From: a virus
Lineage: Duplodnaviria > Caudoviricetes
Length of the DNA: 64,000 bases
Strand: one strand, 5' to 3'
Virus record (IMG/VR): IMGVR_UViG_3300032320_001447
Coordinates: 96,001-160,000 of that record
This document shows, one piece after another, positions 3-61,304 of this stretch. The notes under the pieces were generated by a model. It ran no database searches and was not told the DNA's origin. It saw only the letters and a list, made by a program, of their open reading frames with translations. The translations under genes were made by a program, and so were the position numbers. Positions within the stretch are counted from its first letter, which is position 1. Every line of letters starts with the position of its first letter.

Positions 3-842
3 TATTTAGCCGGCGGTGGAGTTTCTTCTAACGTTTTACAAGGCCAATTAACTATTCCTACATCTAAAAAAGTAACAGGGATTAATACCACTTTTGAATA
101 TACTTTAGTAACAAATAATGATAATCCTGCTTCTGGCGGTGGTGATGGAGATACTGTTGAAGAATTAAGATTGAATTCCCAATTGCAATTTTCAAGCCAA
201 TTAAGAACAGTTACTCAAGAAGACTATTTGGCGAGAGTATTGAGTATGCCTCCTAATTTTGGAAAAGTTTCTAAAGCGTTTGTAACAAAAGATGACGCTA
301 CTTTTAGAAATTATTTGGATAAAAATTCTACGCAAAGAGATCCGCTATCTATAAGTCTTTACGTTTTAGGATTAAATAATTTAGGAACTTTAGACATACC
401 TACACCTTCTCTACTAAAAAATATACAAAGTTATTTAAGTGATTATAGAATGATGACAGACTCTATAAACATAAAGTCTGCTTATGTTATAAACATTGGT
501 TGTAACTTTGATATTATTATTAGACCTAATTACGTAGGCGAAGACGTTGTAGCTAGATGTTTAATTGTTTTGCAAGATTACTTCAATACTAATAACTGGC
601 AAATTAATCAACCTATAATCTTAGCGGACTTAAACGCAGTTTTAGATCAAGTAGAAGGCGTTCAAACTGTTAAAAAAGTAGACATAATAAATAAAGTAGG
701 AGAAGTGAATGGATATTCTAAATATTCTTATGATATAAGTGGAGCATCGGTAAATAATGTAATTTATCCATCATTAGATCCATCTATATTTGAAGTTAAA
801 TTTCCAACTTCCGATATTCAAGGTCGCGTAGTATCATTTTAA
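3..842 (+). CDS. Baseplate wedge subunit (T4 gp6 / baseplate J-like), 5'-truncated by the window edge
   Basis: The frame is open from base 3 (YLAGGGVSSN...NPASGGGDGDTVEELRLNSQLQFSSQLRTVTQEDY), matching the GG.D.E..E.R...F..Q.R.VT..DY signature of baseplate wedge proteins. The TTG start at 171 is internal. Confidence 0.8.
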   Translation, partial: YLAGGGVSSNVLQGQLTIPTSKKVTGINTTFEYTLVTNNDNPASGGGDGDTVEELRLNSQLQFSSQLRTVTQEDYLARVLSMPPNFGKVSKAFVTKDDATFRNYLDKNSTQRDPLSISLYVLGLNNLGTLDIPTPSLLKNIQSYLSDYRMMTDSINIKSAYVINIGCNFDIIIRPNYVGEDVVARCLIVLQDYFNTNNWQINQPIILADLNAVLDQVEGVQTVKKVDIINKVGEVNGYSKYSYDISGASVNNVIYPSLDPSIFEVKFPTSDIQGRVVSF

Positions 843-8121: not shown

Positions 8122-8124
8122 AAA

Positions 8125-9360
8125 ATGAGTATCGCAAAGAATACCATAAGGTTTTCTGATATAACTACCACTCCTATAAAATTAAAGTATTCAGCTTCTT
8201 ATTCAAGCCAATCTTTTTCAAACTTAGGAGTTACTATAAATGGTGGTGTTAACGGTCCTACCGCTAGTTTAGACCCAATTACTGCTATGACTTATAATAA
8301 CAATTATAGGTTAGTTAAACAACTCTATTATACTAATTACATAACGGGATCTTTATTAGGAACTGGTAGCGCATGGGATTCTTCTTTGCAATCCACAGCA
8401 GCTTCTGGAAGTATGGATGCAGATATTAGATCTTTTCCCACTGGAAGTAATGAAAGAATTAGTTTTTTAGCAATTCCAAGAACGGTATTTGGAGAAAATA
8501 TAAGTAGAAACACGTTAGCTATATCAAGCACTAATGGTACTAGTTATAAATTAATAGACGACGGTAATGGAAATATTATAGACGCAAAAGCAAATTACGT
8601 TCATGTTGGAAATATAATATATTCTCAAGGCATAATTACTTTTACTAATCAAGATTATGTTTCTGCGTTCTTTAATAATAATTTTACTTTTACAGTTTCT
8701 ATAGTTCCTCCATCCCCTACGCCAAGCGTTACACCAAGCCTAACTCCTAGTGTAACTGTTACGCCTTCTATAACGCCTAGCGTAACTATAACTCCATCAG
8801 TTAGTGTAACTCCTAACGCTAGCACAACTCCTAGTGTAACTGCTACTCCTTCTGTTAGTGTTACGCCTCCTATAACGCCTAGCGTAACTATAACTCCATC
8901 AGTTAGTGTAACCCCTGTAGTTAGTGTAACACCTTCAGTTACAATAACTCCGTCCGTTACAATTACACAGTCACCGTCAGCTGGTTCGGTTTCTATTACT
9001 GTAAATGATCCAGGTTCTTTCCCTTACCCTGTATCAGCCGGTAATGGATCCGCTTCAGGTACAATTAGTAATACCTCTGGAGTTACGGTATACGTTTATA
9101 TAGTATTTAATAGCGGAGGTAACAATTCAGGAAATATAGGAAGTGATAGTGGTGTTGTAGACGGAACAAGCATTCCTATGAGTGGAACTGTAACAGCATT
9201 CGGACAAACTATATACTCAGCAACCTACGCTACTATAGCAAACGGATCTACTGGATTAGCTTGGAGCTTATCTAAGCAAGACACATTGTCAAGCGGAGCA
9301 ACATTAAGATTAGGCTATTCAACAACTATAGGAGGTGCTATAACTCTTCTATCTCCATAA
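8125..9360 (+). CDS. Structural protein: N-half paralogous to 7090..8121, then mucin-like P/S/T repeat and C-terminal beta domain
   Basis: N-terminal IPRTVFGENI...KLIDDGNGNI...VGNIIYSQGIITFT, then about 90 aa of (S/T)VT(I/V)TP repeats. Confidence 0.65.
   Translation: MSIAKNTIRFSDITTTPIKLKYSASYSSQSFSNLGVTINGGVNGPTASLDPITAMTYNNNYRLVKQLYYTNYITGSLLGTGSAWDSSLQSTAASGSMDADIRSFPTGSNERISFLAIPRTVFGENISRNTLAISSTNGTSYKLIDDGNGNIIDAKANYVHVGNIIYSQGIITFTNQDYVSAFFNNNFTFTVSIVPPSPTPSVTPSLTPSVTVTPSITPSVTITPSVSVTPNASTTPSVTATPSVSVTPPITPSVTITPSVSVTPVVSVTPSVTITPSVTITQSPSAGSVSITVNDPGSFPYPVSAGNGSASGTISNTSGVTVYVYIVFNSGGNNSGNIGSDSGVVDGTSIPMSGTVTAFGQTIYSATYATIANGSTGLAWSLSKQDTLSSGATLRLGYSTTIGGAITLLSP
8707..8980 (+). repeat. 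Degenerate 12/18-bp coding repeat (TPSVTI-type mucin-like tract)
   Basis: Visible actcctag/acgcc units encoding PSPTPSVTPSLTPSVTVTPSITP... Confidence 0.85.
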
Positions 9361-9393
9361 AAATAAAAAACTAGAAGATAATTATAAAAAGAG

Positions 9394-11280
9394 ATGCTGG
9401 TAACAATACAACTTACGAATTATGGGGATGCAGTAGGTCCATTTAATATCTACTACGACCTGGACTATGTTAGCCCTTTCACTATTGCTGCATCCAACGT
9501 ATCTCTCGCTAATTTAATTAATGGCTATGAAGTAGATATAGATACGTTATCTGTTAGAGTGGTATTAGAAAATTTGAACCCATTTGGAAACAATAATTAT
9601 GTAGAAGTATTCTTAGTTCCTCAAAGTCCTTCTCCTACTCCAAGCATGACTCCTTCTATTACAGTTACTCCTAGCATGAGCATCACTCCTAGTGTAACTG
9701 TAACTCCTAGCGTAACTATAACTCCATCAATTACACCTAGTGCTAGCATTACTCCTAGCGTTACTATAACTCCTAGCATTAGCATAACTCCAACAGTTAC
9801 GCCTAGTGTTTCTATAACTCCTAGTGTTACTATAACTCCTAGCATTAGCATTACTCCAACAGTTACTCCTAGTGTTACTATAACTCCTAGCATTAGCATT
9901 ACTCCAACAGTTACTCCTAGTGTTTCAATAACTCCTACTGTAACGCCATCAGTTTCAATAACTCCTAGTGTTTCAATAACTCCTACTGTAACGCCATCAG
10001 TTTCTATAACTCCTAGTGTTTCAATAACTCCTACTGTAACGCCTAGTGTTTCTATAACTCCTAGTTTGACTACAACGCCTACTGTAACACCATCAGTTTC
10101 TATAACTCCAACAGTTACGCCTAGTGTTTCTATAACTCCTAGTGCTACTATTACGCCAACAGTTACTCCATCGACTAGTGTTACTCCAAGCATAACGATA
10201 ACACCAACAGTTACTCCATCTACATCAATAATACCAATAACATTATCAGTAACTGCATTTTGTGATGAACCTGTTTATAATGGAAATGGCAGAATATACG
10301 CTAATGCATTTGGTGGCGGCACAAATAGTTTTGATTATATAACAATTAGTGCGATATCAGCGGCAGACGCGCTATCTAGATTAGATAATCCAGCAACAAG
10401 AACATTTATAGGTGGAGCCACAGAGTATAATTTTACTGGACTAATAAATGATACCTATTATGTAGCTATAATGGATACAGTGGGTAATAAAGGAGTATCA
10501 ACGGCCGTCGTGGTATCTTGTATAGCGCCTTCGCCTACACCGACTAGAACTCCTAGTTCAACGCCAGCACCAACACCTAGTTTAACACCGACTAGAACTC
10601 CTAGTTCAACGCCAGCACCAACACCTAGTTTAACACCGACACCAACGCCTACTCCTCCATTAACAAAATATCTAGTTGAATTATGCGGTGGAGGTGAAGG
10701 ACCATACGTTGTTTCGTTAGCAAGCGGTGATTTCCCTGCAGGAATAGGTTGGTCGTATAAGTTGTATAAAGAAAGTACACCATTTGATGGAATTAAATGT
10801 TGGGAGATCTTAGAAAATCCTTCAACAGGTACTTTGGATTACGATGCGGTTGCTTTTGGCCCTTCTTATAACAACTGTACGGCTTGTCTTCCGCCTCCAT
10901 CACCAACGCCTAGTTTAACACCAACTATAACACCAACACCGACGCCTAGTGCTGCGTTAGGATACGCATTCGTAGATATTGCTAATAACACGGCTGGTAC
11001 AGATATTACTAATATTACAATAAACGGAGTACAAGTAGACGGAGCAGTTTTCCCAATAGTTGCTGGTGATGGAGCATCTGCTACAACAACAGAGACTGGC
11101 GCATCAAGAACAATAGTTGTATCTTATACAAATATAAGTAACGACTCCGTTGAGGTGATTGATACTGCATCAAACCTTACTTGTATAAGCGCAACATCAA
11201 CAAGTAGAACATTTTCTGGACAAGTTGTAAGCGATGCAGGTACAGTAACAATTTCAATGTTTGATGGACCATGTCCATAA
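9394..11280 (+). CDS. Mucin-like P/S/T-repeat protein, likely a virion fibre or decoration protein
   Basis: About 200-aa TPS(V/I)(S/T)I/TPTV tract plus two TP linkers separating small Cys-containing globular domains; no signal peptide; lies in the structural operon. Confidence 0.65.
   Translation: MLVTIQLTNYGDAVGPFNIYYDLDYVSPFTIAASNVSLANLINGYEVDIDTLSVRVVLENLNPFGNNNYVEVFLVPQSPSPTPSMTPSITVTPSMSITPSVTVTPSVTITPSITPSASITPSVTITPSISITPTVTPSVSITPSVTITPSISITPTVTPSVTITPSISITPTVTPSVSITPTVTPSVSITPSVSITPTVTPSVSITPSVSITPTVTPSVSITPSLTTTPTVTPSVSITPTVTPSVSITPSATITPTVTPSTSVTPSITITPTVTPSTSIIPITLSVTAFCDEPVYNGNGRIYANAFGGGTNSFDYITISAISAADALSRLDNPATRTFIGGATEYNFTGLINDTYYVAIMDTVGNKGVSTAVVVSCIAPSPTPTRTPSSTPAPTPSLTPTRTPSSTPAPTPSLTPTPTPTPPLTKYLVELCGGGEGPYVVSLASGDFPAGIGWSYKLYKESTPFDGIKCWEILENPSTGTLDYDAVAFGPSYNNCTACLPPPSPTPSLTPTITPTPTPSAALGYAFVDIANNTAGTDITNITINGVQVDGAVFPIVAGDGASATTTETGASRTIVVSYTNISNDSVEVIDTASNLTCISATSTSRTFSGQVVSDAGTVTISMFDGPCP
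9619..10236 (+). repeat. Degenerate tandem coding repeat (TPSVSI/TPTV units)
   Basis: Many near-identical actcctagtgtt(t/a)c(t/a)ata units. Confidence 0.9.
10537..10640 (+). repeat. Perfect 48-bp tandem duplication (TPTRTPSSTPAPTPSL x2 plus partial copy)
   Basis: acaccgactagaactcctagttcaacgccagcaccaacacctagttta at 10537 and 10585; partial copy at 10633. Confidence 0.9.
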
Positions 11281-11410
11281 AAAACAAAATTTGGAATATA
11301 AATAAAAATTAATATATAAATAGGTATAATATACTATACGTACTTACATACTTTGTTTTCTACTTTAAAAATAAATTTTACATTGTAAATTAAAAGTTTT
11401 AGATTACATT

Positions 11411-12667
11411 ATGCCAAAAATATTTGTTTCGATAGCATCTTACAGAGACCCTGAATTACTTCCTACACTTGAAAATTTATTAGATAATGCAAAGTATCCT
11501 CAAGACCTTGTTATTTGTATAGGGTGGCAGCATTCAAAAGAAGACAAATGGGACAATTTAAAGAAATATAAAAGGGATCAGCGATTTAAGATCATAGATA
11601 TAGACTACAAAGAGTCCAAGGGAGTTTGTTGGGCAAGAAGCGAAATACAAAAACTTTACACAGACGAGGACTACTACCTTCAATTAGATTCTCATCACAG
11701 ATTTACAAAAGATTGGGACGTACAATTAAAAGATCTTTTGCACTATCTTATGTGCAAGGGTCATGAGAAACCTTTACTATCTGCTTACATCCCAGGATAT
11801 TTTCCAGAAAAAGATCCTAAAGACAGAGTTAACGAAGTTTGGGGTTTAAACATAGACAGATTCATGCCGGCTGGCGCCATATTCTTAAGACCTCATCACA
11901 TAGAAAAGTTTGAGGAATTAAAAGAGCCTTTCTCAACCAGATTTATATCGGCTCACTTTATTTTTACCATTGGAAAATTTGTAAAAGAAGTGCCTTACGA
12001 TCCAAACTTATACTTTCATGGAGAAGAGAGTTCTTTAGCCGCTAGAGCTTACACTTACGGATACGATTTATTTGCTCCACACAAAGTGATAGTTTGGCAC
12101 GAATACACAAGAGAGGGAAAGAAAAGACATTGGGACGATAGTCAAGATTGGAAAGCCAAAGACGATGCTTCTTACTCAAGATTTAGAAAACTATTTGGTA
12201 TGGATCCGGGTTGTACGCCATGTCAAAGAAAAGCGCTAGCTCCTTACGGATTCGGTCCAACGAGATCTTTAACTGATTTTGAAAAGTACGCAGGTTTAAA
12301 ATTTGCAACAAGACAAATACACAGAGAGACTCTAAAAAATAATTTTCCTCCAATAAAATCAGATTACGAATCGGGTCTTGCATCTAGTCAAAAGTACTGT
12401 ATAGACATTTATAAAGGATCTTTAACAGAAAAAGATTACGATTCTTTTGTTGTTGCATTTTTGGATGAGAACGGAGAAGATATATACAGACAAGATTGTA
12501 ATAAGGAAGAAATTCAAAGCATGATGAATCTTGATGTAAACAATAAATTCATTCATATATGGAGAAATTTTGAAGCTGTAGAAAGACCAGTTTGTTGGAG
12601 AGTTTGGCCTCATTCAGAATCTATGGGTTGGATGGAAAGAATAGAACAAAAAATATCATATGAATAA
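11411..12667 (+). CDS. GT60-like glycosyltransferase (Skp1/polypeptide GlcNAc-transferase family, Pfam GlcNAc)
   Basis: IFVSIASYRDPEL, KGVCWAR, YYLQLDSHHRF..WD, LYFHGEE, RAYTYGYDLFAP...VWHEY motifs. Confidence 0.85.
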   Translation: MPKIFVSIASYRDPELLPTLENLLDNAKYPQDLVICIGWQHSKEDKWDNLKKYKRDQRFKIIDIDYKESKGVCWARSEIQKLYTDEDYYLQLDSHHRFTKDWDVQLKDLLHYLMCKGHEKPLLSAYIPGYFPEKDPKDRVNEVWGLNIDRFMPAGAIFLRPHHIEKFEELKEPFSTRFISAHFIFTIGKFVKEVPYDPNLYFHGEESSLAARAYTYGYDLFAPHKVIVWHEYTREGKKRHWDDSQDWKAKDDASYSRFRKLFGMDPGCTPCQRKALAPYGFGPTRSLTDFEKYAGLKFATRQIHRETLKNNFPPIKSDYESGLASSQKYCIDIYKGSLTEKDYDSFVVAFLDENGEDIYRQDCNKEEIQSMMNLDVNNKFIHIWRNFEAVERPVCWRVWPHSESMGWMERIEQKISYE

Positions 12668-13934
12668 TAAGTTACAGACCATACTCGTACATTTACCTGC
12701 TTATAGGGACCCAGAATTGGTGCCAACTATTAAGAACGCACTAGAGAATGCGAAATATCCAAAACGAATTCACTTCGGCATTTGTAGACAATACAACCCA
12801 GAAGATCTTTTCGATAATGTAGACGAGTTTAGAAATGACAAACGTTTTCATATCATGGACGTTTTGTACACAGAAGCTCAAGGTCTACCATGGGCAAGAG
12901 CTCAAATCAACGAGAAGCTTTTAACCAATCAAGATTACATTTTACAACTGGATTCTCATCACAGATTCGCAGAGAATTGGGACGAGACTTTAATTGAAAT
13001 GCATAGCGATTTAGAAGCTCAAGGATACAAACCAATCTTAGGGGCTTATTTGCCATTGTATACTCCGTTTAACGATCCAGAAGGACGTACCATGGAGCCA
13101 TGGCAGCAGACCTTTGCTTGCTTCTATCCTCACGGAACTATCTTCATCAGACCAGGATTGCTACACGGTTGGCAAGACATGATAGAACCACCAATGAGTA
13201 GATTCTTATCTGGCCACTTCTGTTTTGCTAGATCTGAATGGGCAAAGGAGATAAAACACGATCCAGATATCTATTTTAGTGGAGAAGAATTAAACTTAAC
13301 TGTTAGATCTTACACTCATGGATACGATTTATTCCATCCGCACAAATTAGTTGTTTGGCATTCTACTATGAGAGAAGAGAGATCTGGCATGTTGAAGTGG
13401 GACGATGATTCTAAATTAGGAGTTAATTGGTTCCAAAAGCAAGAGTATGCAAGAAAAAAGATTAGAGTCTTATTAGGAACAGAAGAGGATCCAACTATAG
13501 ATTTAACTGGATACGATTTGGGTACAGTGAGAACTTTAAGAGATTTTGAAAAGTACGCAGGATTTCACTTCAAAAGGAAGTCTGTTCAAAAATATACACT
13601 AGACAACAAGTATCCGCCTAATCCATTGATAGAAGACGATGAATTATGGGAACAGTCTTTCATGGGATCTTTCTACCATCTAGTTACTATATATCCTCAT
13701 GACTTTCCAAGAAAGGATTATAAACATATCTTAGTAGCATTCGACGATGAAACAGGTAAAGCAGTGAATCACAAGTACATTGCTGGCGAGGAACTAGAAA
13801 ACTTTATGCACAAAGGACAACAAATACACTACGAAGAGTTTTTCTTAACAAATAAAAATCCTTCTAGAGTAGTATATTGGGGATTCACAGAAGAAGAAGG
13901 TTGGGTTGAAAGAGTAGAACATAAAATAAATTAA
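12660..13934 (+). CDS. GT60-like glycosyltransferase, paralog 2
   Basis: LPAYRDPEL, GLPWAR, YILQLDSHHRF.ENWD, IYFSGEE, RSYTHGYDLFHP motifs; full-length similarity to 11411..12667. Confidence 0.85.
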   Translation: MNNKLQTILVHLPAYRDPELVPTIKNALENAKYPKRIHFGICRQYNPEDLFDNVDEFRNDKRFHIMDVLYTEAQGLPWARAQINEKLLTNQDYILQLDSHHRFAENWDETLIEMHSDLEAQGYKPILGAYLPLYTPFNDPEGRTMEPWQQTFACFYPHGTIFIRPGLLHGWQDMIEPPMSRFLSGHFCFARSEWAKEIKHDPDIYFSGEELNLTVRSYTHGYDLFHPHKLVVWHSTMREERSGMLKWDDDSKLGVNWFQKQEYARKKIRVLLGTEEDPTIDLTGYDLGTVRTLRDFEKYAGFHFKRKSVQKYTLDNKYPPNPLIEDDELWEQSFMGSFYHLVTIYPHDFPRKDYKHILVAFDDETGKAVNHKYIAGEELENFMHKGQQIHYEEFFLTNKNPSRVVYWGFTEEEGWVERVEHKIN

Positions 13935-13938
13935 AAAT

Positions 13939-14637
13939 ATGAATAAATTTGTAGAATTGCTCAAAGCATGCGACAGTTTTAAAGTAGACACTTTATACTG
14001 GGATCACGACATTTTAGCGCCTTTTGAAAATGATTTAAGAAATTATCCTGCTCCGTGGATAAAAAAGACCGTAGAATTATTAAAAATAATAGACGGAAAA
14101 GTAGTAGTAGAAATAGGATCTACAAGAAGAGAGATGACTCAATCTTGTTTAAACTACTATGACAACTGTTATACCATGACTCCTGCGCAAGCACCCGGTT
14201 GTTGTCAAGATGGACACTCTACTCATTTTTGGGCAGATGCTGGATTCGAAACTTATACAGTAGATATAGATGAAAATTGTAGAGTTCAATTAGAAAATCA
14301 GTATAAGTATCATATTCAAAAACCTATACCGGATAATTTACACATATGTATACCTCAAGATGGAATAGAATTTTTAACTAATTTTGATAAGAAAATAGAC
14401 TTATTATTTTTAGACGGTTGGGATAAAGGTTCTCACAATTACGCAGAAAAACATTTAGAAGCATTTTTAGCTGCTAAAGATAAATTGTCTGATTTACATT
14501 TGGTATCTATAGATGATACAGATTTTAATACTGAAAGTGCTGGTAAAGATAAATTATTAACGCCTTATTTATTAGAGAATGGATATATCAAAATACTTTG
14601 GGGAAGACAAATTGTTTTCATAAAGAATCAAATATGA
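13939..14637 (+). CDS. Class I SAM-dependent methyltransferase-like protein (Methyltransf_24-like)
   Basis: VVEIGS, YTVDID, IDLLFLDG and IDD motifs. Confidence 0.65.
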   Translation: MNKFVELLKACDSFKVDTLYWDHDILAPFENDLRNYPAPWIKKTVELLKIIDGKVVVEIGSTRREMTQSCLNYYDNCYTMTPAQAPGCCQDGHSTHFWADAGFETYTVDIDENCRVQLENQYKYHIQKPIPDNLHICIPQDGIEFLTNFDKKIDLLFLDGWDKGSHNYAEKHLEAFLAAKDKLSDLHLVSIDDTDFNTESAGKDKLLTPYLLENGYIKILWGRQIVFIKNQI

Positions 14638-15566
14638 AATTAAATTTCTATTACGAAAATCCTATTCCTGGTTCAATGGCTGGAAATGTATGTCATTTGG
14701 TTGCAGCAGAAAGATTCTTGAATTTATGTAAGAACGCCTATCCTGATATAGAGTTTAATTACATAAATTCTTGGGGAATTACTTATGAAAATGGTTTACC
14801 AACCCTTAGAAGTTGTCCAGGTTGTAAATTTAGTCACTTCTTCGTAATAATAGAAAACCCAGATAATAAAAAGTTTTTTGTTATTTCTTATTGGGACAAA
14901 TTAAAAGACATCACTTTAGACGGCACTTTTTGGGATTTAGAAAATTGTATGGGAATATTTCCATCTGCGGGAACTCACACTGACGATTTTTCTTTTAGAT
15001 CTATAGATTTAGATTATACTCCTATCGCTCCTTTAACTATACATAAATCTTTAGAAGATAAAGCGCAAGAATTATATCTCTTAAATGTTCCTAAGACTAC
15101 ACCTAAAAGTTTATTTTTTAGAGGGGGCGATTATGGTTTTAGAAGCTACTTATCTCGTAATGATAATAGATTTATAATTAATCATGAAAGAATAGATACT
15201 GCTATATTTGCAGAGGAAATGGCTAAAAATACTATTAACATAGATATTAACGCAGTAGCTGAAATTTCTGGAAGAACTATAGATGCTATGGCTTTAGGAA
15301 CTGCTTTAATCAGGCCTAAATTGTCCATCAAATATCATAACCCTCTTATACCAGATTATCATTATGCAGAAGTTAAATGTGATGATCTTTCTAATTGGCC
15401 TAAATTAGCAGACGCTTATGTAGAAAGATTTGAAGAACTTAAAAAAGACGAAGAGCAAGTTAAATTCTTTTCAGAAAATGGAAGAAGATGGTACGAAGAA
15501 AACGCAACAATAGAAGCTCATGTGAGTATTCTTAAAAAATTAATAGACTTAAATAAACTTGCCTAA
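14634..15566 (+). CDS. Putative GT-B glycosyltransferase
   Basis: LFFRG, GRTIDAMALGTALI, LIPDYHY, ENGRRWYEEN; the start at 14634 overlaps the upstream stop (ATGA). Confidence 0.55.
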   Translation: MKLNFYYENPIPGSMAGNVCHLVAAERFLNLCKNAYPDIEFNYINSWGITYENGLPTLRSCPGCKFSHFFVIIENPDNKKFFVISYWDKLKDITLDGTFWDLENCMGIFPSAGTHTDDFSFRSIDLDYTPIAPLTIHKSLEDKAQELYLLNVPKTTPKSLFFRGGDYGFRSYLSRNDNRFIINHERIDTAIFAEEMAKNTINIDINAVAEISGRTIDAMALGTALIRPKLSIKYHNPLIPDYHYAEVKCDDLSNWPKLADAYVERFEELKKDEEQVKFFSENGRRWYEENATIEAHVSILKKLIDLNKLA

Positions 15567-15569
15567 TAA

Positions 15570-16367
15570 ATGAAAGCAGTAGTAACATTGACGACTATAC
15601 CATCTAGATTGGTTAGCATATATCACGAAGATATAAAAGTGTGTTTAGATTCTTTACTTAATCAAGATTTTGAAGATTATGAAATTCATTTCAACATACC
15701 TTATTTTTTTAAATTAACCGAAGAAGAATATATTATTCCAGAATGGTTGAACGAATTAGTTGGAAACAATCCTAAGTTAAAAATATTTAGAGGAGAAGAT
15801 TATGGGTCTATTACAAAATTAGTAGATACTATAAAAAGAATAGAAGATTCTAATTGCATTATTATCACAGCAGATGATGATTTAGTATATCATCCAGAAA
15901 TGGTAAGTGAACAATATAAAAATCAAACAGAAAGATTTAGTAATTGCGCGGTGGGTTATGATGGTATTAGTGCATTAGAACCAGTGTTTAGAGACATACG
16001 CAGTCATTATGTAGTAAGCGTTCCTTGTAATGTTAAAGTAAATGTATTGCAACACTATAAAACAGTATCTTACAAAAGAAGTTATTTTGAAGAGGATTTC
16101 TTTACTGATTTTGTAGGACAATCTTGGGCCGACGATATTTTAGTATCAGCTTATATGGGAAAACAAAAGATTACAAAATACGTAACTTACTTTGAAAAAG
16201 AAAGCATACCTGCTACTATAGAAGAGTGGAATAGCAGAGGAGGCGTAACAACGTTTCCTATAATAAAACACACTCAACACGATTCACAAGAAGGTTGCAA
16301 TATTAAAAGAAATAATCAAGAAACAGACAATTTTATGTACTTTGTGCATAAAGGATACTTAAGATAA
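15570..16367 (+). CDS. GT-A fold glycosyltransferase
   Basis: VVTLTTIPSRL, DYGSITKL, IITADDDLVY (DxD) and DDILVS motifs. Confidence 0.75.
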   Translation: MKAVVTLTTIPSRLVSIYHEDIKVCLDSLLNQDFEDYEIHFNIPYFFKLTEEEYIIPEWLNELVGNNPKLKIFRGEDYGSITKLVDTIKRIEDSNCIIITADDDLVYHPEMVSEQYKNQTERFSNCAVGYDGISALEPVFRDIRSHYVVSVPCNVKVNVLQHYKTVSYKRSYFEEDFFTDFVGQSWADDILVSAYMGKQKITKYVTYFEKESIPATIEEWNSRGGVTTFPIIKHTQHDSQEGCNIKRNNQETDNFMYFVHKGYLR

Positions 16368-16371
16368 TATT

Positions 16372-18765
16372 ATGAGTTATAAAGAAGTTTTTAGCGGCAT
16401 TTATGATAATTTTGGTTTCGGAAGTTTGGAAAGCCGATCAGGTCCAGGCAGTACTTTAGAAGAAACTAAATTTCTTAGAGAGAAATTAAAAGAAATAGTA
16501 AAACAGAAAGACATAAAATCTGTAGTAGATATACCTTGCGGTGACTTTAATTGGATGAAAGAGATTGTATTTAGTTTTGAATCTTATACTGGTGGAGATA
16601 TTGTGGAGCAGTGCATCAAAACTAATAGTGAAGAATACGGAAGCAAGAGAATAAAGTTTATTGACTTCGATCTGTTAAACGATAGTATTCCCGATTCTGA
16701 TCTTTTAATAGTTAGAGATATTGTTGGTCACTTTCCTTTAGAAGATGGAAAAAAGATAATTGATAACATACTCAGATCTAATTGTAAATATCTTTTAAGC
16801 ACCACATGGGCAAAAAACACAGAACAAGGTTGGAGTAATTGTGGTCCCATGGATGTACATAGAGAAAACGAAGGAGTTGATTATGGAAGATTCTATCCAG
16901 TTAATTTAATGGCGCACCCATTCAATTTTCCATTAGCCGAAGTATTTTTAGAAGAAGACGTACGCGTAGATAATTTTGATAATGGAAATAGAAAGGCTTT
17001 AGCTCTATGGGATTTAGATAAAGTTAGAGAACATTTAAAAACAGTTGAACCAATACAATCTTTTAATACAGAATCAACAAAAAATTTAACAGTAGTTACA
17101 GGACTTTGGAATATTAATAGAAATGGCAGACCATTCGATCACTATATAGATAATTTTAAAAAGCTGTTAGATACCCCTCAGAATTTATTTATCTTTATTG
17201 AAAAAGAATATGAGCATTTAGTTTGGGATAAAAGATCTCCAAAAAATACTTTTGTTAAAATCTATGAGTTAGAAGACGTTAAAAACTTATACTCTCCTTT
17301 TTGGCAGAAAACTCAAGACCTTAGAAACAGTCCAGATTGGCATAATATCACTGGTGAAAATGGATGGTTAAAAGACAGTCCGCAGGCTAGCTTAGAGTGG
17401 TATAATCCAATAGTAATGTCAAAAATGTTTATGCTACACGATGTAACCATTTGGAATCCTTTTGATACAGAGTATTTTATATGGTTAGACGCAGGAATTA
17501 CTAATACTGTATATGAAAAATATTTTACAGAAAATAATGTGCTAAATAAAATAACTAGTTACTTAGATCCGTTCCTATTTTTATCTTATCCTTACGAAGC
17601 TGTCGATGAAATTCATGGATTTAAGTATGGAGAAATGAATAGGTATGCAGGTACTAAAGTAGAATATGTATGTAGAGGAGGGTTATTCGGAGGAAGCAAA
17701 GCCGCTATACATGAAGCAAATAGTGAATATTACAGTTTACTAAACAATACCTTATCTGACGGGTTGATGGGAACAGAAGAAAGCATTTTTACTATAATGT
17801 CTTATCTTTATCCTAACAGATATAGAAGATTCGAATTAGACAGTAACGGTTTAGTAATTAAATTTATACAAGCTTTAGATAGCGAAAATTTGCAGTTATC
17901 CGAAATTAAAAAGGATTTGGATTTTATACCTAATAAAAATGTTAACGTAGATAATTTAAAGACATCTATTTACATGTTGACTTTTAATTTTCCTCATCAA
18001 GTAGAACACACAATTCAAACTTGGTTAAAGCACTCAAGATTCATTAGCAATACAAGAAATATTTTAATAGATAATTCGACAAATGAAGAGGCTAGAATTG
18101 CCAATAAAGAAATTTGTGATAAGTACGGATTCGAACATATCATAACAAATGAAAACGCCGGTATCAATGGAGGCAGATTCAGAGCGGCCCAGCACTTCCA
18201 AGAATCAGATAGCGATTACTACTTATTTTTAGAAGACGATATGGGAATCCATCCTCCAGAAGAATTAGGTTTTTGTAGAAATGGATTTAGATATTTTGTT
18301 CCTAATTTGTACGATAACATTCTTAAGATAATGCACGGAAGCGATTTAGACTTTCTAAAATTATCTTACACAGAAGTTTACATGGATAACAATATTCAAG
18401 TCTCTTGGTATAATGTTCCTCAAACAGTTAGATCTGAATTTTGGCCCGATTATGATAAACTTCCTGTAACAGGACTTGACACTAATTGTCCTAGAACCGC
18501 TTTCAACAAAATAGAAGTCGTAGACGGTCTTAGCTATATTACTGGAGAAATCTATTACGCTAACTGGCCTATGATTGTGGGTAGAAAAGGCAATCAAAAG
18601 ATGTTCTTAGACACTACTTGGGCTAGACCTTACGAACAGACTTGGATGAGTTATATGTTCCAAGAAACTAAAAAAGGTAATTTAAAACCAGCGGTGTTAT
18701 TAGCTAGCCCAATTAACCACGATAGAATAGCTCACTATAAACCCGAAGAAAGACGAGAGAACTAA
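16372..18765 (+). CDS. Three-domain fusion: SAM methyltransferase + HtrL/YibB-like glycosyltransferase + GT-A/GT2 domain
   Basis: SGPGST...VVDIPCGDFNWM (methyltransferase); VVTGLWNI...SKMFML...NPFDTEYFIWLDAG...GGLFGG (HtrL-like); LIDNS...YYLFLEDD (GT-A). Confidence 0.7.
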   Translation: MSYKEVFSGIYDNFGFGSLESRSGPGSTLEETKFLREKLKEIVKQKDIKSVVDIPCGDFNWMKEIVFSFESYTGGDIVEQCIKTNSEEYGSKRIKFIDFDLLNDSIPDSDLLIVRDIVGHFPLEDGKKIIDNILRSNCKYLLSTTWAKNTEQGWSNCGPMDVHRENEGVDYGRFYPVNLMAHPFNFPLAEVFLEEDVRVDNFDNGNRKALALWDLDKVREHLKTVEPIQSFNTESTKNLTVVTGLWNINRNGRPFDHYIDNFKKLLDTPQNLFIFIEKEYEHLVWDKRSPKNTFVKIYELEDVKNLYSPFWQKTQDLRNSPDWHNITGENGWLKDSPQASLEWYNPIVMSKMFMLHDVTIWNPFDTEYFIWLDAGITNTVYEKYFTENNVLNKITSYLDPFLFLSYPYEAVDEIHGFKYGEMNRYAGTKVEYVCRGGLFGGSKAAIHEANSEYYSLLNNTLSDGLMGTEESIFTIMSYLYPNRYRRFELDSNGLVIKFIQALDSENLQLSEIKKDLDFIPNKNVNVDNLKTSIYMLTFNFPHQVEHTIQTWLKHSRFISNTRNILIDNSTNEEARIANKEICDKYGFEHIITNENAGINGGRFRAAQHFQESDSDYYLFLEDDMGIHPPEELGFCRNGFRYFVPNLYDNILKIMHGSDLDFLKLSYTEVYMDNNIQVSWYNVPQTVRSEFWPDYDKLPVTGLDTNCPRTAFNKIEVVDGLSYITGEIYYANWPMIVGRKGNQKMFLDTTWARPYEQTWMSYMFQETKKGNLKPAVLLASPINHDRIAHYKPEERREN

Positions 18766-18778: not shown

Positions 18779-19084
18779 ATGCCAGCAGTACCAGTAGTAC
18801 CATATTCTCTATCCTTTTTGGCCGAATCAACGATTTACCAAAACGAGGTTAGATGTAAAGTTAACGAAAACGATTTTAATTATACACTTAATAGATCTGC
18901 TATTATAGAAGGAACTAGCGGATCTTATATAAATGCTGTAACTGGATCAGAATTTAGGCCTTACGCAACTACCGTGGGTTTATACAACGATGCAGATGAA
19001 TTATTAGTGGTTGGTAAATTATCCACTCCATATCCTATTCCTTCAAATACAGATATGACCTTTATTATTCGTTGGGATAGCTAA
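18779..19084 (+). CDS. Structural protein fragment paralogous to the C-terminus of 7090..8121
   Basis: FNYTLNRS...PYATTVGLYNDADELLVVGKLSTP...IRWD aligns with YNYTSNPS...TYMTTVGLYNTNNDLLAVAKLSKP...VKLDW; has its own ATATTTAT at 18765. Confidence 0.7.
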   Translation: MPAVPVVPYSLSFLAESTIYQNEVRCKVNENDFNYTLNRSAIIEGTSGSYINAVTGSEFRPYATTVGLYNDADELLVVGKLSTPYPIPSNTDMTFIIRWDS

Positions 19085-19603: not shown

Positions 19604-19642
19604 AAAATAAAAGGGAGCCCGAATGAGCTCCCTTTCTTATTT
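19604..19642. terminator. Bidirectional intrinsic terminator at the strand switch
   Basis: aaagggagc-ccgaatga-gctcccttt hairpin flanked by A- and T-rich tracts between convergent genes. Confidence 0.8.
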
Positions 19643-47520: not shown

Positions 47521-48696
47521 TTAGAATACGTTCTTGATGAATGTTCCCATCATTTTGTCTATGTGATCTACCATTTGCAATACATTGATCTTAAGTCCAT
47601 TATATTCATAAGTACCCACTGCATCTACAGATTCTTTAATAATAACCTGTATATTGGGAACAATGTTTAAATCCACATTGTCTTTTGCATCAAAGTAGAT
47701 AAGAATGTCGTTCTGCTTTGGTTCTTCTATTGGACGCACCCTAGCTTCAAGGATTAGATCTGTCTTAGGTTGCTCGTATTCTATATAGTCAGCAATTATA
47801 GACTGATCTACGTATATATTATTGAACCATGGCTCTAATGATAATAATAAACTAGAATCGCAATTCTCTACAACTATTCCTATATCGTACCTCGGTTTTA
47901 ATATTGGTCTTTGATACTCATCGTTATCAATCCAACTACCCCACTTTCTAATGTAGTTTCTTGCCGCTTTCGCTGAAGCATTCTTAAAGTAATCATCGTC
48001 TTTGCCGATCTCTTCTGTCCATCTGTGTCCTCTACAAGTTAAGTGATATACAAATGCATCTCTTGACTGGATTAATTCGTATCCGTGTAGCATCCATCTT
48101 TGGAATATATCCGAGTCTTCGTAAGGGAATGGCGCGAATAGTCTGTCATGTCCTCCCATTGTAACAAAGTCTTCTTTGTATATAATCCACGGTGCAAACA
48201 TACCATTAGTGGTTAAGTCTTTGTACTCATGTTGAGCCTCTAAAACGTATGCCTCAAATGCGTTTAAGTTTAAGTTGTCGAAGTCAGTACCAAAATCTTT
48301 AATGATCTTCTCTTTACCTGCTGGGTGCAATGGAGGTTCTACTCTTGTTGCGCACACTACAGTTTCTTTTTGTAAATGCTTAAGTGTATTCTCTAAGTAG
48401 TAAGGACCTAATATCATATCTGCGTGCATGATACCGACCACTTCTGTTTGAGCCAACTCAATTCCTTTATCGTATAGTACTGTATGACCTACTCTTTCAG
48501 AAGATCTATATATAGCGGTGATATTGTCATCGCTTAAACTAGCCAACCACTCTGTAGTACCATCTGTAGATCCATCGTCTAACATAACGATCTTACAATT
48601 TTGCGCATGCGTCTTTATACTCTGATATGCATTCTTTAAGTGTCTTAGATTATTACTCGATGGTATAACTAATGTAACTTGTTCTTGTGTTAACAT
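47521..48696 (-). CDS. GT2 family glycosyltransferase
   Basis: LVIP, LDDGSTDGT, MHADM, GGHD.LF and EDSD. Confidence 0.85.
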   Translation of the reverse strand: MLTQEQVTLVIPSSNNLRHLKNAYQSIKTHAQNCKIVMLDDGSTDGTTEWLASLSDDNITAIYRSSERVGHTVLYDKGIELAQTEVVGIMHADMILGPYYLENTLKHLQKETVVCATRVEPPLHPAGKEKIIKDFGTDFDNLNLNAFEAYVLEAQHEYKDLTTNGMFAPWIIYKEDFVTMGGHDRLFAPFPYEDSDIFQRWMLHGYELIQSRDAFVYHLTCRGHRWTEEIGKDDDYFKNASAKAARNYIRKWGSWIDNDEYQRPILKPRYDIGIVVENCDSSLLLSLEPWFNNIYVDQSIIADYIEYEQPKTDLILEARVRPIEEPKQNDILIYFDAKDNVDLNIVPNIQVIIKESVDAVGTYEYNGLKINVLQMVDHIDKMMGTFIKNVF

Positions 48697-49829
48697 AATT
48701 TTAATTTAGGTTGACTTTCTTTTTTCTCTCTTACAATTAATTTGAATACTTGTAACTCATATTCTCCAGGTTCTTGAACTTCATTAGTGATTAATTCTGG
48801 TAGATTATGCAGAATATAATTAAAAAGATCTTGATTATTAAGAATATCTTTATAGTCTGCTTCTAAAATCATATCTGTAGTTAACTCGCTAACAAACTTA
48901 GAAGTCAAATCAAAAGAAGTCAAAGTGCTTGCGCCTTTAATGTAGTTAGTAGAATCAGCTTCGCACTGTATCTGATCGAAGAATGGTTCTATTCCTAGAA
49001 CTTTACTATCGAAACAGTTTAGTATTCTTAAACCAATATTGTATTTTATATTTGGTATTGGTTCTAATGTATCTGTTTGTTTTAAAAATCCTCCCCATTT
49101 TCTAATGTATTCATTCATTGATATGGAGTTATTTATTTGCCACGCTTCGTCTTTCTTTTGAAAGTCTTCCATCTTTTCTGCGTGTGCAAATTGTCCGCCT
49201 CTACAAGTTAAGTGATATACCATTGCAGACCAAGATTGTATTAGATCATATCCTTGTAATTTAAAGCGTCTAAATAAATCTGCATCTTCAAATACTGATC
49301 TGAATACTGGATCGTGTCCTAAATGTTGGTCTTTTCTAATTAACCATGGAGCAAAGATACTCTTTGTTATCTTATCGCTTTTGTTCTCTTCTACAAACTT
49401 ATTAAACTCTTCAATCTTTAAATCTTCTGGCCACATACCAAAATCTTGTACTATCTTCTCTATTCCTGCTGGATGTAATGGCGGTTCTATACGTGTAGCG
49501 CATACAATATTATCTTTTGTTTTAATATCCATCATGTGCTTGTCTGCATGAGGACCAAGAATCATATCTGCGTGGAATGCAACTACATATTCTCTATCAG
49601 CCTCTTTAAATATTGTATCGTAAGCGTGACCTATTCCTTTGGGTTCAGTGCTAGCATTTATAATAAACCTAACGTCTTGTGTCTCTAACCATTCTACAGT
49701 TCCATCAGTATCTTGATCTACATACACAATTATTTCGTTAGGATAATAAGAGTTATCTTGAATAGATTTGATACATGGTTTTAAGTATCTTAAGTTATTT
49801 TTTGAAGGGATGCAAAACGTAATTGCCAT
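48690..49829 (-). CDS. GT2 family glycosyltransferase (paralog of 47521..48696)
   Basis: FCIP, DGT, FHADM, ATRIEPPLHP, EDAD and YHLTCRG. Confidence 0.85.
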   Translation of the reverse strand: MAITFCIPSKNNLRYLKPCIKSIQDNSYYPNEIIVYVDQDTDGTVEWLETQDVRFIINASTEPKGIGHAYDTIFKEADREYVVAFHADMILGPHADKHMMDIKTKDNIVCATRIEPPLHPAGIEKIVQDFGMWPEDLKIEEFNKFVEENKSDKITKSIFAPWLIRKDQHLGHDPVFRSVFEDADLFRRFKLQGYDLIQSWSAMVYHLTCRGGQFAHAEKMEDFQKKDEAWQINNSISMNEYIRKWGGFLKQTDTLEPIPNIKYNIGLRILNCFDSKVLGIEPFFDQIQCEADSTNYIKGASTLTSFDLTSKFVSELTTDMILEADYKDILNNQDLFNYILHNLPELITNEVQEPGEYELQVFKLIVREKKESQPKLKLC

Positions 49830-50398
49830 TATATAATTTCTACTTGTACGTTACCAAAACAAACTAAACCTGTTCCATGATGATGACCAATCTCTGTTAC
49901 ATCATACGTAGGTAAGTCTAAACTATCCCACCAAAATTGCATACTAGGATTCAAATGAATGTCGTCGCATAACATAAAACCTTCGTATCCAATCTCAGTT
50001 AATAAATCTGAGAACACTTTCTCTTGAGCTCCATCATGTGGATCGATGTCTAACATAATCAACGGACTTTTCAATAAGATTTCTTTGTCTTCTGTATTGA
50101 TGTCTTTAATTACTGGAACGATATTTGAATATTGTTTAAACGAATCAAAGTCATTGTTATTGATATCGTATGTACGTACAATGTTATTAGGGTTATGTGC
50201 AAAAGCGATAGCTGAATTACCATACGATGTTCCTGCATCAATGATAGTAGTCATATTAAACTTGGTCGATAGATAAGCGCATAGTTTAAAGTGTTCTCCA
50301 TCAACTATATTCCACTCTTGCCATGGACATTGCGAGTTAGTTAGATGGCTTAAATCGAAGCTTAACACATCTTGCTTTACAATGGTTAGTTTTTTCAT
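49829..50398 (-). CDS. SAM-dependent methyltransferase-like protein
   Basis: IIDAGTSYGNSA, TYDI, MLDID.H and DDI. Confidence 0.65.
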   Translation of the reverse strand: MKKLTIVKQDVLSFDLSHLTNSQCPWQEWNIVDGEHFKLCAYLSTKFNMTTIIDAGTSYGNSAIAFAHNPNNIVRTYDINNNDFDSFKQYSNIVPVIKDINTEDKEILLKSPLIMLDIDPHDGAQEKVFSDLLTEIGYEGFMLCDDIHLNPSMQFWWDSLDLPTYDVTEIGHHHGTGLVCFGNVQVEII

Positions 50399-51243
50399 TT
50401 GAATAAATGTTTGTATTTGTCTTTGTTGTTAATTAAATATGTTGGAAGTAAATCATTACGAACTTCACAAGCAAATGGTCGGCCTAATACATCCATGCCT
50501 GCATCAAGACGTTGTTGTACTACGTTCTTAACTTGATCGTTATTGTATTCTTGGTGACCAAAGTTTTCTAGTTTAGTCTTAATACGTTCTAAGCCTCCTT
50601 GATAAGTAAAGTGCCAACCTCCGTTATCTAAGAATAGGTGTTGTGTTTTAGATACAGTATCTAAGTGATTAGCTGACGCGTTCTTTATATTCTTATACTT
50701 AGTGTAGTAAGTACCGAACCACTCTTCTGAACTTCTAAGGTTTAAGAAGCCGGTCATTACGTGTTGCTTTAATTTGATCACGTTGTAGTCATCAACAGGA
50801 TATTGAATATCTGGATTCCACATCTCATCTACATCTGAATTAAATACTAAATCGTTGTCATCAAGTCCTGCCATCATTAAACCTCTGCGAATGCTTTCAT
50901 GTTGATAGAATTCACGAAGCCATTGTTCTTCTCCAGCTGTATTAGATGTAGTTAAACAGTGCATTAAGATATTCTTATGTAGATCATCTTTAGGATTCAT
51001 AAATGCCTTTCTAGCTTCTGCAAAGGTATTAGGCGTATCATCAACAATGCAGTGCACAATCTTATGATTGAACTTTTCAAACAAGTGTTTGTTCTCGTTG
51101 TAGTATAAAGGTTTGTCTTTACCTGCATGACTGACTGTTGATTCAATCAATATAAAATAGTCTACCTTATCATTGAGTATATTAAGTCTAATGTCTAATA
51201 GATCTAATTCATTAAAGAATATAAATGCGTCTGCTACTTTCAT
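50395..51243 (-). CDS. GT17-like beta-1,4-N-acetylglucosaminyltransferase
   Basis: DAFIFFNELDLLDIRL, VDYFILIES, SDVDE and GGWHFTY. Confidence 0.8.
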   Translation of the reverse strand: MKVADAFIFFNELDLLDIRLNILNDKVDYFILIESTVSHAGKDKPLYYNENKHLFEKFNHKIVHCIVDDTPNTFAEARKAFMNPKDDLHKNILMHCLTTSNTAGEEQWLREFYQHESIRRGLMMAGLDDNDLVFNSDVDEMWNPDIQYPVDDYNVIKLKQHVMTGFLNLRSSEEWFGTYYTKYKNIKNASANHLDTVSKTQHLFLDNGGWHFTYQGGLERIKTKLENFGHQEYNNDQVKNVVQQRLDAGMDVLGRPFACEVRNDLLPTYLINNKDKYKHLFK

Positions 51244-52154
51244 TTAGTATATTGTTTATAACGTTCTGAGTTTTGTTGTATGTATAATTCAAACTCTCTT
51301 TTACATTCGTCGTAAGATTGTAAGTTACCTTGTCTGTCCATGTAAATAAAGTCTCTATATAAGTTAACTCCTGTACACCAATATCCGTCTGATACATTAT
51401 GTCTTGCCCAATATTTAGGCGCGATAATTAATCTAGCCTCTTCGTTTGTTAAAGCTGGGAAATAACCAAAGCTTGAGTTAGATAAAATTAGCCATCTCGC
51501 ATTCTTGATCGTAGCGTAATCTCTACCTACATCAAAGTGATACACATTATCTGCAAGTTCAGGAAGCAATCTCTTTGCCATATCTGGATTCTCTGTGATA
51601 ACTAAGAACTGCATGTCGGGGTTCATCTTTAACATGTGATAAATAGCACGAACCCAATAATCTCTTGGTAAAAATAGTTCGTTGTTACCTTCGTAGTCTC
51701 TGATATTCAGTACACAAATGTTATCGTCTGTGAATTCTTTATTATCATGTTCAGGCTTTAACTTCAACCATTGCTTAATATCTTCTTTACGATGGTAGAT
51801 ATAGTCTTCTGATTGCATCGTGCCATCAATCTTACAGTCATCTGGCACATTGGCTAAGTCGTGATCCGATAACCTAATATCGCAACCTAAAGTGGCATCG
51901 TGATTGCTATTGTTAGTAATAAGTCTTAACTCTTTTTCTTGATAGTGGTTGACAATCTTGCTATCTTCAACAGGTTCTCCTAAGTATAAGTCCATAAAAT
52001 ATAGACCTTCGCTATTGTATCTTTTATCTCCCAAGTTCTCTAAACCTTTAAGACCAAACTCAACATCTCTATCCTCTGCTATTACTCTAGTAGTAACGTA
52101 AACGTGTAGTTGGTTACCTAATCCTTGACCATGGTATAATTCAGTTAGTATCAT
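51240..52154 (-). CDS. GT11-like fucosyltransferase
   Basis: GLGNQL, QSEDY, ILSNSSF and IIAPKYW. Confidence 0.7.
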   Translation of the reverse strand: MILTELYHGQGLGNQLHVYVTTRVIAEDRDVEFGLKGLENLGDKRYNSEGLYFMDLYLGEPVEDSKIVNHYQEKELRLITNNSNHDATLGCDIRLSDHDLANVPDDCKIDGTMQSEDYIYHRKEDIKQWLKLKPEHDNKEFTDDNICVLNIRDYEGNNELFLPRDYWVRAIYHMLKMNPDMQFLVITENPDMAKRLLPELADNVYHFDVGRDYATIKNARWLILSNSSFGYFPALTNEEARLIIAPKYWARHNVSDGYWCTGVNLYRDFIYMDRQGNLQSYDECKREFELYIQQNSERYKQYTK

Positions 52155-52157
52155 TAT

Positions 52158-53153: not shown

Positions 53154-53810
53154 TTATAAACTTTTTTGTGTTACTTGATAATAAAAATTGTTTCTACCAT
53201 GAAATCCAAAAGGTATGTTACCATAATTCTCTGCTACCATAGTTTCGTGACTGAATTGTGCAGCAACCTCTATTGATGCAAACTTACAGCCAGCTGATTC
53301 GTAGTTACTTCTATTATGACAACATATAAATCCATCTTCGTGATAGAATCCATAATACTGTTTCCATTCTAAATCTAAATCATTTGCCACACATAATAAC
53401 TTTTTACTTCTTAGTGTAAATCCTCCATTACCCATTCTTTGTATGTTTCCTTCTGGATCTCTGAAAGAGAAATCATCTTGGGGCAATGGCCATAAAGCTC
53501 CTATGTAATCGTATTGCATCCACTCGTTTTGCCAACTATCTGGATTCACCACATATCCATCGTTCTGTACTAATAAGCAATGTGTAGTGTTAATGTATTC
53601 ATGCAATCTATAAACTATAAAGTGGTTGTACTGCTCATAGTTTAATGGTTCGCATTTGATAATCTCTACTACATCGTCTTGTATATCTTCAGGAGTAATT
53701 AGGATCGCACGGTCAAACTCTAATTCTCTCATAGAATACTTGATAGCCTTTAGAGTTTCAATAGCTTTTGTACCTGCTACAGCAGCGATGGTTACATTAT
53801 TTAGTTTCAT
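53154..53810 (-). CDS. DUF5672-like putative glycosyltransferase
   Basis: LVQNDG, YDYIGA.W, GNGGFTLRS, ED and PFGFHG. Confidence 0.7.
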   Translation of the reverse strand: MKLNNVTIAAVAGTKAIETLKAIKYSMRELEFDRAILITPEDIQDDVVEIIKCEPLNYEQYNHFIVYRLHEYINTTHCLLVQNDGYVVNPDSWQNEWMQYDYIGALWPLPQDDFSFRDPEGNIQRMGNGGFTLRSKKLLCVANDLDLEWKQYYGFYHEDGFICCHNRSNYESAGCKFASIEVAAQFSHETMVAENYGNIPFGFHGRNNFYYQVTQKSL

Positions 53811-55978: not shown

Positions 55979-56036
55979 TATCTTTTTATATAAATATTAA
56001 GCTACCGACCAAAATGTCCTATCTTATTATAAGTTA

Positions 56037-61299: not shown

Positions 61300-61304
61300 A
61301 TTCT

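Follow-up and report, generated by a model that had tools for sequence, protein, structure and literature searches.

A candidate phage-encoded system for mucin-type protein O-glycosylation that pairs GT60-family transferases with Pro/Ser/Thr-rich stalk proteins

We describe a gene block in a 64,000-nucleotide window of phage DNA (bases 96001-160000 of the 174,359-bp IMG/VR virus record IMGVR_UViG_3300032320_001447, a genome complete by CheckV estimate) in which genes for proteins with long proline/serine/threonine (P/S/T) tracts stand next to genes for two glycosyltransferases of the GT60 family. With a probability of about 0.6, this block, at window positions 8125-18765, encodes a cytoplasmic mucin-type protein O-glycosylation system of the phage. 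The proposal builds on family membership, fold, catalytic motifs and a gene linkage that holds whichever partner is taken as the starting point and that spans domains of life. The window has a GC content of 35.5%, and because the closest tail sheath is that of Flavobacterium phage vB_FspM_immuto (46.5% identity), the phage is probably a large myovirus of Flavobacteriia. The genes that carry the proposal are the following, in window positions unless stated otherwise:

8125..9360, + strand: P/S/T protein 1 (P0001, 411 amino acids [aa]), with its stalk at aa 186-289, window 8680-8991
9394..11280, + strand: P/S/T protein 2 (P0002, 628 aa), with stalks at 9613-10263, 10498-10668 and 10879-10962
genome 32782-34731 (L026:10783-12732), - strand: third P/S/T protein (649 aa), a paralogue of P0002, with tracts of 257, 64 and 56 aa
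11411..12667, + strand: GT60a (P0003, 418 aa), putative initiating polypeptide N-acetylhexosamine (HexNAc) transferase (PF11397, E 8e-70)
12660..13934, + strand: GT60b (P0004, 424 aa), paralogue of GT60a (PF11397, E 8e-52)

Hidden Markov model (HMM) searches against PF11397, the Pfam family that we take to be CAZy GT60, bore out the original prediction that the genes starting at 11411 and 12660 belong to this family, with P0003 scoring 236.4 bits and P0004 177.2 bits over a curated cut-off of 21. The two enzymes are paralogues with 39% identity, and their genes stand in tandem throughout the close clade of relatives (at least 65% identity) and in about one-fifth of a diverse viral set of 76 loci (47-75% identity). 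Both proteins carry the motifs that had been quoted for them, (S/A)YRDPE, WAR, LDSHHRF and F(H/S)GEE, and 41 diverse homologues including both paralogues all share D93, H95, E205, E206 and H230, and nearly all share G204. Judging by spacing, we presume that D93-x-H95...H230 corresponds to the metal ligands of GT27.

An AlphaFold2 (AF2) model of P0003 on 41 diverse homologues, with a mean predicted local distance difference test score (pLDDT) of 94, predicts a GT-A catalytic domain at aa 1 to ~310 and a beta-rich C-terminal domain at ~320-418. The nearest solved fold by VIA-align was the polypeptide N-acetylgalactosaminyltransferase (ppGalNAc-transferase) ppGalNAc-T1 (mGalNAc-T1; Z 22.0, root-mean-square deviation 3.6, 277 aa aligned), followed by TgGalNAc-T3 (Z 20.2) and then by generic GT-A enzymes (Z <=17.1), while the top Foldseek matches were all ppGalNAc-transferases from animals and Toxoplasma, in agreement with the kinship that had been claimed. 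Searches of solved structures by sequence returned no relative for P0003, the A1 profile or P0008, the last of which is described below, and no P/S/T tract occurs within the GT60 enzymes themselves in 150 representatives. As modeled, GT60a and GT60b are structurally closest to mucin-initiating ppGalNAc-transferases, and their activity as polypeptide transferases is putative.

The tracts, first estimated at about 90 and 200 aa, measure 104 aa in P0001 and 217 aa in P0002. Together with the 257-aa tract of the third protein, they form long, dense repeats with 45-50% Ser+Thr and 17-19% Pro; the P0001 tract holds 25 T, 22 S, 20 P and 27 V/I. In both P0001 and P0002 the repeat unit is TP(S/T)(V/I), with or without an extra (S/T)(I/V), and the tract DNA repeats imperfectly in tandem, the periods being 18, 48, 66, 78 and 114 nt. 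P0002 has three tracts (aa 74-290, 369-425 and 496-523; 217, 57 and 28 aa) with small globular domains between the stalks, and P0001 consists of an N-terminal domain (aa 1-185), the stalk and a hypervariable C-terminal domain. Among relatives the N-terminal domain of P0001 is kept at 27-71% identity and the C-terminal domains, all located after the stalk, cannot be aligned, which fits fibers with exchangeable distal domains. The C-terminal domain of the 649-aa paralogue is near-identical to that of P0002, and its gene lies between tail-fiber and tail-sheath genes, in another structural module 70 kb away. This architecture and the position of the genes suggest that the stalk proteins may be located on virion fibers. 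P0001 showed no signal peptide on inspection by eye, a tblastn search with P0002 against phages gave no match, and homologues of P0001 and P0002 were not found in immuto, the nearest cultured phage. A beta-helix reading of the tracts is possible but not favored: the matches to LpxD hexapeptide repeats were weak (E 5e-3 and 6e-4; 16-19 bits, the cut-off being 207) and probably reflect composition.

The linkage between GT60 and P/S/T genes reaches well beyond this genome. At E <= 1e-3 the PF11397 family comprises 4551 clusters at 50% identity, and stretches bearing it number at least 580 in species-representative bacterial genomes and at least 583 in IMG/VR; among cultured phage records, 4 of 50,697 have it, all of them Xanthomonas or Stenotrophomonas jumbo phages. 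We compared the 76 diverse viral loci and a set of 80 bacterial loci, drawn from at least six phyla (Gemmatimonadota, Acidobacteriota, Verrucomicrobiota, Bacteroidota, Proteobacteria and Actinobacteria), with a null model in which the same open reading frames (ORFs) were re-placed at random within their own loci. The co-occurrence that had been proposed as a check was positive on both sides: 500 bp or less separates GT60 from a tract ORF in 21/76 viral loci (null 7.9 +/- 2.4, maximum 18 in 2000 trials) and in 19/80 bacterial loci (null 5.7 +/- 2.1, maximum 12); five further bacterial loci have the order tract gene, HtrL-GT-A, GT60. When the distance was extended to 10 kb, a strict P/S/T ORF was present in 46/76 diverse viral loci. 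The repeat units differ between viral lineages (TPSVSV, TPTQTPTN and TPTPTK, among others) and most of the flanking domains are unrelated. GT60-P/S/T adjacency beyond chance is therefore found in phages and independently in bacteria, the coupling being a genomic one.

The association could also be followed from the tracts to the enzymes. Six large contigs that had been found solely by a (Thr-Pro)5 DNA pattern were searched whole, and four contained PF11397, the other two being 30-34% complete. Three GT60 phage genomes with no tract nearby (CheckV completeness 100, 100 and 93%) have 2, 1 and 8 tract ORFs elsewhere, and immuto, a relative devoid of GT60, has no tract ORF apart from one antisense artefact. 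Within the close clade, a P/S/T ORF adjoins GT60 in 14 of 18 loci, and the order is fixed: genes for a 1363-aa, a 220-aa and a 343-aa protein, the P/S/T gene or genes, GT60a and GT60b, then variable genes, HtrL-GT-A, a 101-aa protein and a homing endonuclease. The stalk protein of this clade ranges from 369 to 1524 aa. Taken alone, this order is synteny.

The proteins encoded next to bacterial GT60 genes are small, and in most of them an arginine-rich N-terminus that includes a hydrophobic segment precedes a conserved W-x-K-P-x-I motif and a pure P/S/T tail. We had the impression by eye that these carry twin-arginine signals, which HMM searches did not support (best E 0.11). In Gemmatimonadota (L042, L045, L049 and L054, at ~9100-9950) the product of the gene immediately upstream of GT60 combines a PqqD-like domain with a hydrophobic segment and a P/S/T tail; an NTP_transf_5 nucleotidyltransferase gene lies nearby, and the context resembles loci for ribosomally synthesized and post-translationally modified peptides. 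Two P/S/T proteins encoded divergently from GT60 are candidate glycosylated surface proteins of Bacteroidota: one from Saprospiraceae (L039:8504-9649:-), with a sorting domain of the type IX secretion system at its C-terminus, after the tail, and one at L041:7997-9751:-, whose C-terminal domain can be aligned by eye. A sulfotransferase gene adjoins the P/S/T gene of the former.

Downstream of GT60b, four genes complete the cassette:

13939..14637, + strand: P0005, possible S-adenosylmethionine-dependent methyltransferase (Methyltransf_24, E 6e-4, below the cut-off)
14634..15566, + strand: P0006, possible GT-B/GT90-like glycosyltransferase, likely start at ATG 14634 (language-model match to Glyco_trans_1_2/GT90 clusters)
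15570..16367, + strand: P0007, small GT-A-like glycosyltransferase with an ADDD motif (GT2, E 1.8e-4, below the cut-off)
16372..18765, + strand: P0008, fusion of a methyltransferase (aa 1-225), an HtrL/YibB-like domain (226-510) and a GT-A domain (511-797) (phrog_3382, 2.6e-34; PF09612, 1.3e-11)

The original prediction had described these genes as a methyltransferase, a GT-B, a GT-A and a methyltransferase-HtrL-glycosyltransferase fusion that together elongate and cap the glycan, which held in part. The methyltransferase and HtrL domains of P0008 are solid, whereas the methyltransferase of P0005, the GT-A of P0007 and the C-terminal transferase of P0008 were sub-threshold or weak, and the GT-B label of P0006 has a language-model match behind it and no HMM match in profile searches. 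Although the C-terminal GT2-like match of P0008 is weak by Pfam, the domain is strongly conserved: the HtrL-like domain accompanies GT60 in 65/76 diverse viral and 29/80 bacterial loci, and the GT-A part in 60/76 and 31/80, in both cases usually adjacent. Three single proteins of 949-1196 aa (P0180, P0207 and P0212) are fusions of GT60, HtrL and GT-A. The conserved partner of GT60 is thus the HtrL-GT-A portion of P0008, while the predicted methyltransferase, GT-B and small GT-A are variable add-ons that most relatives do not have; homologues of P0005 occur in only 3 related loci and those of P0007 in 16/94 viral loci, and P0006 is likewise variable. Since few relatives have P0005, P0006, P0007 or the N-terminal methyltransferase of P0008, the core, as read from gene content, consists of HtrL-GT-A and one or two GT60 copies around a variable middle, an arrangement that would fit a conserved core glycan with diversified caps.

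We propose the following sequence of events. Late in infection, the fibre-like P0001 and P0002 and the third paralogue would be made, each with an N-terminal anchor, a Thr/Ser/Pro stalk and a variable distal domain, and the two GT60 enzymes would place the first HexNAc on Thr or Ser of the TP(S/T)(V/I) repeats. Judged by family, this sugar would most likely be an alpha-linked N-acetylglucosamine (GlcNAc) from UDP-GlcNAc. The HtrL-like and GT-A domains of P0008 would lengthen it to a short core, which the lineage-variable P0006, P0007 and methyltransferases, and possibly the guanosine diphosphate (GDP)-sugar cluster at 47.5-64 kb, would diversify and cap, leaving stiff, hydrated, protease-resistant stalks on the virion. 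A search of the complete 174-kb genome for prolyl 4-hydroxylase (PF13640) gave no match, although control genomes do match, making Thr/Ser a likelier acceptor than hydroxyproline (Hyp). In this scheme we infer the acceptor, the sugar, the order of the steps, the location in the virion and the benefit to the phage.

Several observations weigh against this proposal. All links to an acceptor are ones of guilt by association, and the phage loci are phylogenetically related, so their counts are not independent events. No tract ORF lies within 10 kb in 30/76 diverse viral loci and in most bacterial loci, and among 80 viral loci chosen solely by the (Thr-Pro)5 pattern, 76 do not have GT60 in the same ~10-kb piece and 4 do. 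P0001 and P0002 had no informative match to known virion protein families by HMM search, and the AF2 model of P0001 on 10 homologues (pLDDT 36) shows no readable fold. The least comfortable datum is the context in the Xanthomonas/Stenotrophomonas jumbo phages, where the homologue lies near replication genes and a carbamoyltransferase and the sole tract is inside a giant ORF ~9 kb away. In addition, the HtrL family is otherwise tied to lipooligosaccharide loci (PMC4172580).

This last association also favors an alternative that we consider unlikely, namely that the cassette makes or alters a glycan other than one on protein (host lipo- or exopolysaccharide, capsule or a free oligosaccharide, for example), perhaps for superinfection exclusion or to aid adsorption, and that the P/S/T tracts are unmodified flexible linkers that happen to share a late operon. 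The many GT60 loci without a nearby tract ORF and the presence in the genome of a second large GDP-sugar/glycosyltransferase cluster, typical of polysaccharide synthesis, point the same way. Yet the nearest structures are protein-acting ppGalNAc-transferases, clearly ahead of polysaccharide GT-A enzymes, and flippase, polymerase and membrane-anchor genes were not found in the cassette by profile searches. Moreover, P/S/T genes adjoin GT60 more often than chance allows in bacterial phyla that are unrelated, some of them in operons that join a tract gene, HtrL-GT-A and GT60, and the link between P/S/T tracts and GT60 also holds in reverse.

Somewhat less likely still is that GT60 glycosylates proteins other than the stalks, such as capsid, sheath and tube, or host proteins. 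There is precedent on both sides of such an arrangement: mycobacteriophages Che8, Corndog and Myrna have glycosylated virion proteins, according to PMC12363180, which cites Freeman 2023, and the characterized Gnt1 modifies a single Hyp of folded Skp1 (PMC6939170). Against this, the genome has no prolyl hydroxylase gene by the PF13640 search, the bacterial neighbors are little more than a signal or anchor with a P/S/T tail, and both the adjacency of tracts and GT60 and the reverse association would be left unexplained. Glycosylation of hypermodified phage DNA with hydroxymethyl-pyrimidine bases, which the jumbo-phage homologues near DNA polymerase and RNase H could suggest, is highly improbable given a family and fold of polypeptide transferases, bacterial homologues that adjoin secreted P/S/T proteins, and five or six transferase domains plus methyltransferases, which would be excessive for bases. 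Each of these three alternatives accounts less well for the tract-GT60 association than does glycosylation of the P/S/T stalks.

Among the closest known systems are two from eukaryotes. GT60 is regarded as a protist family, the counterpart of GT27 mucin initiators that also includes the Skp1 Hyp-GlcNAc-transferase (PMC8724618, PMC6939170), and its presence has been traced to the last eukaryotic common ancestor (PMC8724618). The phage enzymes share PF11397 membership with the protist GT60 enzymes (Dictyostelium, Trypanosoma cruzi) and their nearest solved fold with animal GT27, and have in common with both the DxH...H and GE(E/N) motifs and Thr/Ser/Pro-repeat acceptors, which are putative for the phage (PMC8724618). 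In contrast to these enzymes, the ones described here are encoded by phages and bacteria and are soluble; as they lack a signal anchor, their place of action would be the cytoplasm of the bacterium and not the Golgi. They also have a beta-rich C-terminal domain of ~100 aa that is not described for GT60, and a ricin-like nature of this domain would be conjectural. The Skp1 pathway (PhyA, the GT60 enzyme Gnt1 and the GT74-GT2 protein PgtA) is similar in having a cytoplasmic GT60 followed by a two-domain transferase; Toxoplasma PgtA has a domain of unknown fold followed by a GT2-like one (PMC6939170), the order seen in the phage HtrL-GT-A and likened to it by layout alone. A GDP-fucose-type pathway adjoins the module in related phages, another point of likeness. 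Unlike that pathway, the phage has no prolyl hydroxylase (PF13640 search) and no Skp1, and its acceptor would be long repeats instead of one Hyp.

To our knowledge, phage virion glycosylation has so far been documented solely in mycobacteriophages. There, as in the proposal made here, the phage is believed to encode glycosyltransferases that act, within the cytoplasm of the host, on structural proteins of the phage itself. The hosts and phage lineages differ, the proposed targets here are dedicated repeat stalks of fibre-like proteins, and glycosylation in the mycobacteriophages has been demonstrated by experiment, whereas the present system is known from genes and models. Gram-positive serine-rich-repeat adhesins, in which cytoplasmic GlcNAc initiation by GtfA/GtfB precedes export by accessory Sec, are comparable in that initiation takes place on long Ser/Thr repeats and variable elongating transferases are encoded beside the substrate gene. 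Their initiator is a GT-B pair, whereas the one proposed here is a GT-A of the GT60 family, and profile searches found no GtfA/GtfB-like (Glycos_transf_1-type) or SecA2/Y2 match in the cassette. A literature search returned no relevant paper on GT60/PF11397 in phages or on a mucin-like phage glycosyltransferase. Neither glycosylation of phage virions nor mucin-type glycosylation is new in itself; what we did not find in the literature searched is a form of it in phages and bacteria that is based on GT60, has HtrL-GT-A as partner and serves dedicated P/S/T acceptors.

If the proposal is true, a large and abundant group of aquatic phages coats its fiber stalks with self-made glycans, with consequences for how the particles adsorb, resist proteases and stick in water and mucus, and bacteria of many phyla modify P/S/T-tail proteins by a route of O-glycosylation that has not been described. 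Prokaryotic relatives would then make it possible to test how eukaryotic mucin-type and Skp1 glycosylation arose, and the enzyme and substrate would offer a compact, simple pair for bacterial glyco-engineering. A broader idea, which we put forward tentatively and hold to be rather doubtful, is that GT60, HtrL-like and GT-A enzymes with P/S/T-tail proteins constitute an ancient and widespread cytoplasmic mucin-type O-glycosylation pathway of prokaryotes and phages. Such a pathway would be homologous to protist Gnt1-PgtA and older than the mucin initiators of eukaryotes; its targets would be small exported proteins with P/S/T tails in bacteria and virion fibers in phages, with lineage-variable caps serving as a surface code.

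The genomic setting of the cassette includes these further features:

3..842, + strand: baseplate J/gp6-like wedge protein that opens the co-directional structural operon (phrog_6, 4.9e-16; PF04865, 2e-4)
11297..11322, + strand: two TATAAATA boxes in the 130-nt gap upstream of GT60a
18779..19084, + strand: 101-aa protein, a C-terminal domain copy of the 343-aa protein at 7090-8121 (39% over 75 aa, E 1e-9)
19610..19636, no strand assigned: bidirectional terminator-like hairpin that closes the operon
47521..63963, - strand: second glycan cluster, 16 kb

The + strand genes from 3 to 19580 form a single co-directional block with short gaps, and the predicted ORFs were all present, with the tract genes coming after baseplate genes in the same block, as had been stated. 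The gene for the 343-aa protein is directly upstream of P0001, and the 101-aa ORF closes the cassette in all close relatives by synteny. As the 343-aa protein is intact, the 101-aa ORF is not a piece of a split structural gene. A megablast search of the block against cultured phages gave no match. TATAAATA is the T4 late-promoter consensus; as the motif shows no enrichment across the window, the boxes upstream of GT60a are a lead only. A SegE-like GIY-YIG homing-endonuclease gene borders the GT60 cassette on its 3' side (19107-19580) and another, with GIY-YIG and NUMOD3, lies within the second glycan cluster (55331-55978); the two endonucleases may be drivers of cassette exchange.

The second cluster contains a gene for GDP-mannose 4,6-dehydratase (GMD; E 1e-117), three other epimerase/reductase genes and a DegT aminotransferase gene, along with four GT2 genes, with GT17-like, GT11 and GT-B genes, and with DUF5672 and DUF3431; GT11 is the fucosyltransferase family. 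Together with the cassette at 11.4-18.8 kb, it brings the glycan-related share of the genome to ~14%. GMD adjoins the GT60/HtrL module in two related phages, and it is possible that the cluster supplies or elaborates sugars for the P/S/T system. In a 167-kb relative (G002, 93210-100074), an HtrL-GT-A gene adjoins genes for GMD, an epimerase/reductase and DegT, with GT60 ~27 kb away, which hints that the HtrL-like domain uses a GDP-6-deoxyhexose.

Other arrangements were seen within the family. In Xanthomonas phage XacN1 (L024, 9989-13706) a carbamoyltransferase gene comes after the GT60 homologue, with DNA polymerase and RNase H a few kb away, and the P/T tract of this phage lies in the 3313-aa ORF325. 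A deltaproteobacterial GT60 operon (L047:3528-6427) includes a GT4 enzyme and a TMEM260-like protein O-mannosyltransferase. Finally, the giant proteins P0129, P0131, P0132, P0133 and P0136 (1320-2461 aa) each have three or four stretches that match GT60.

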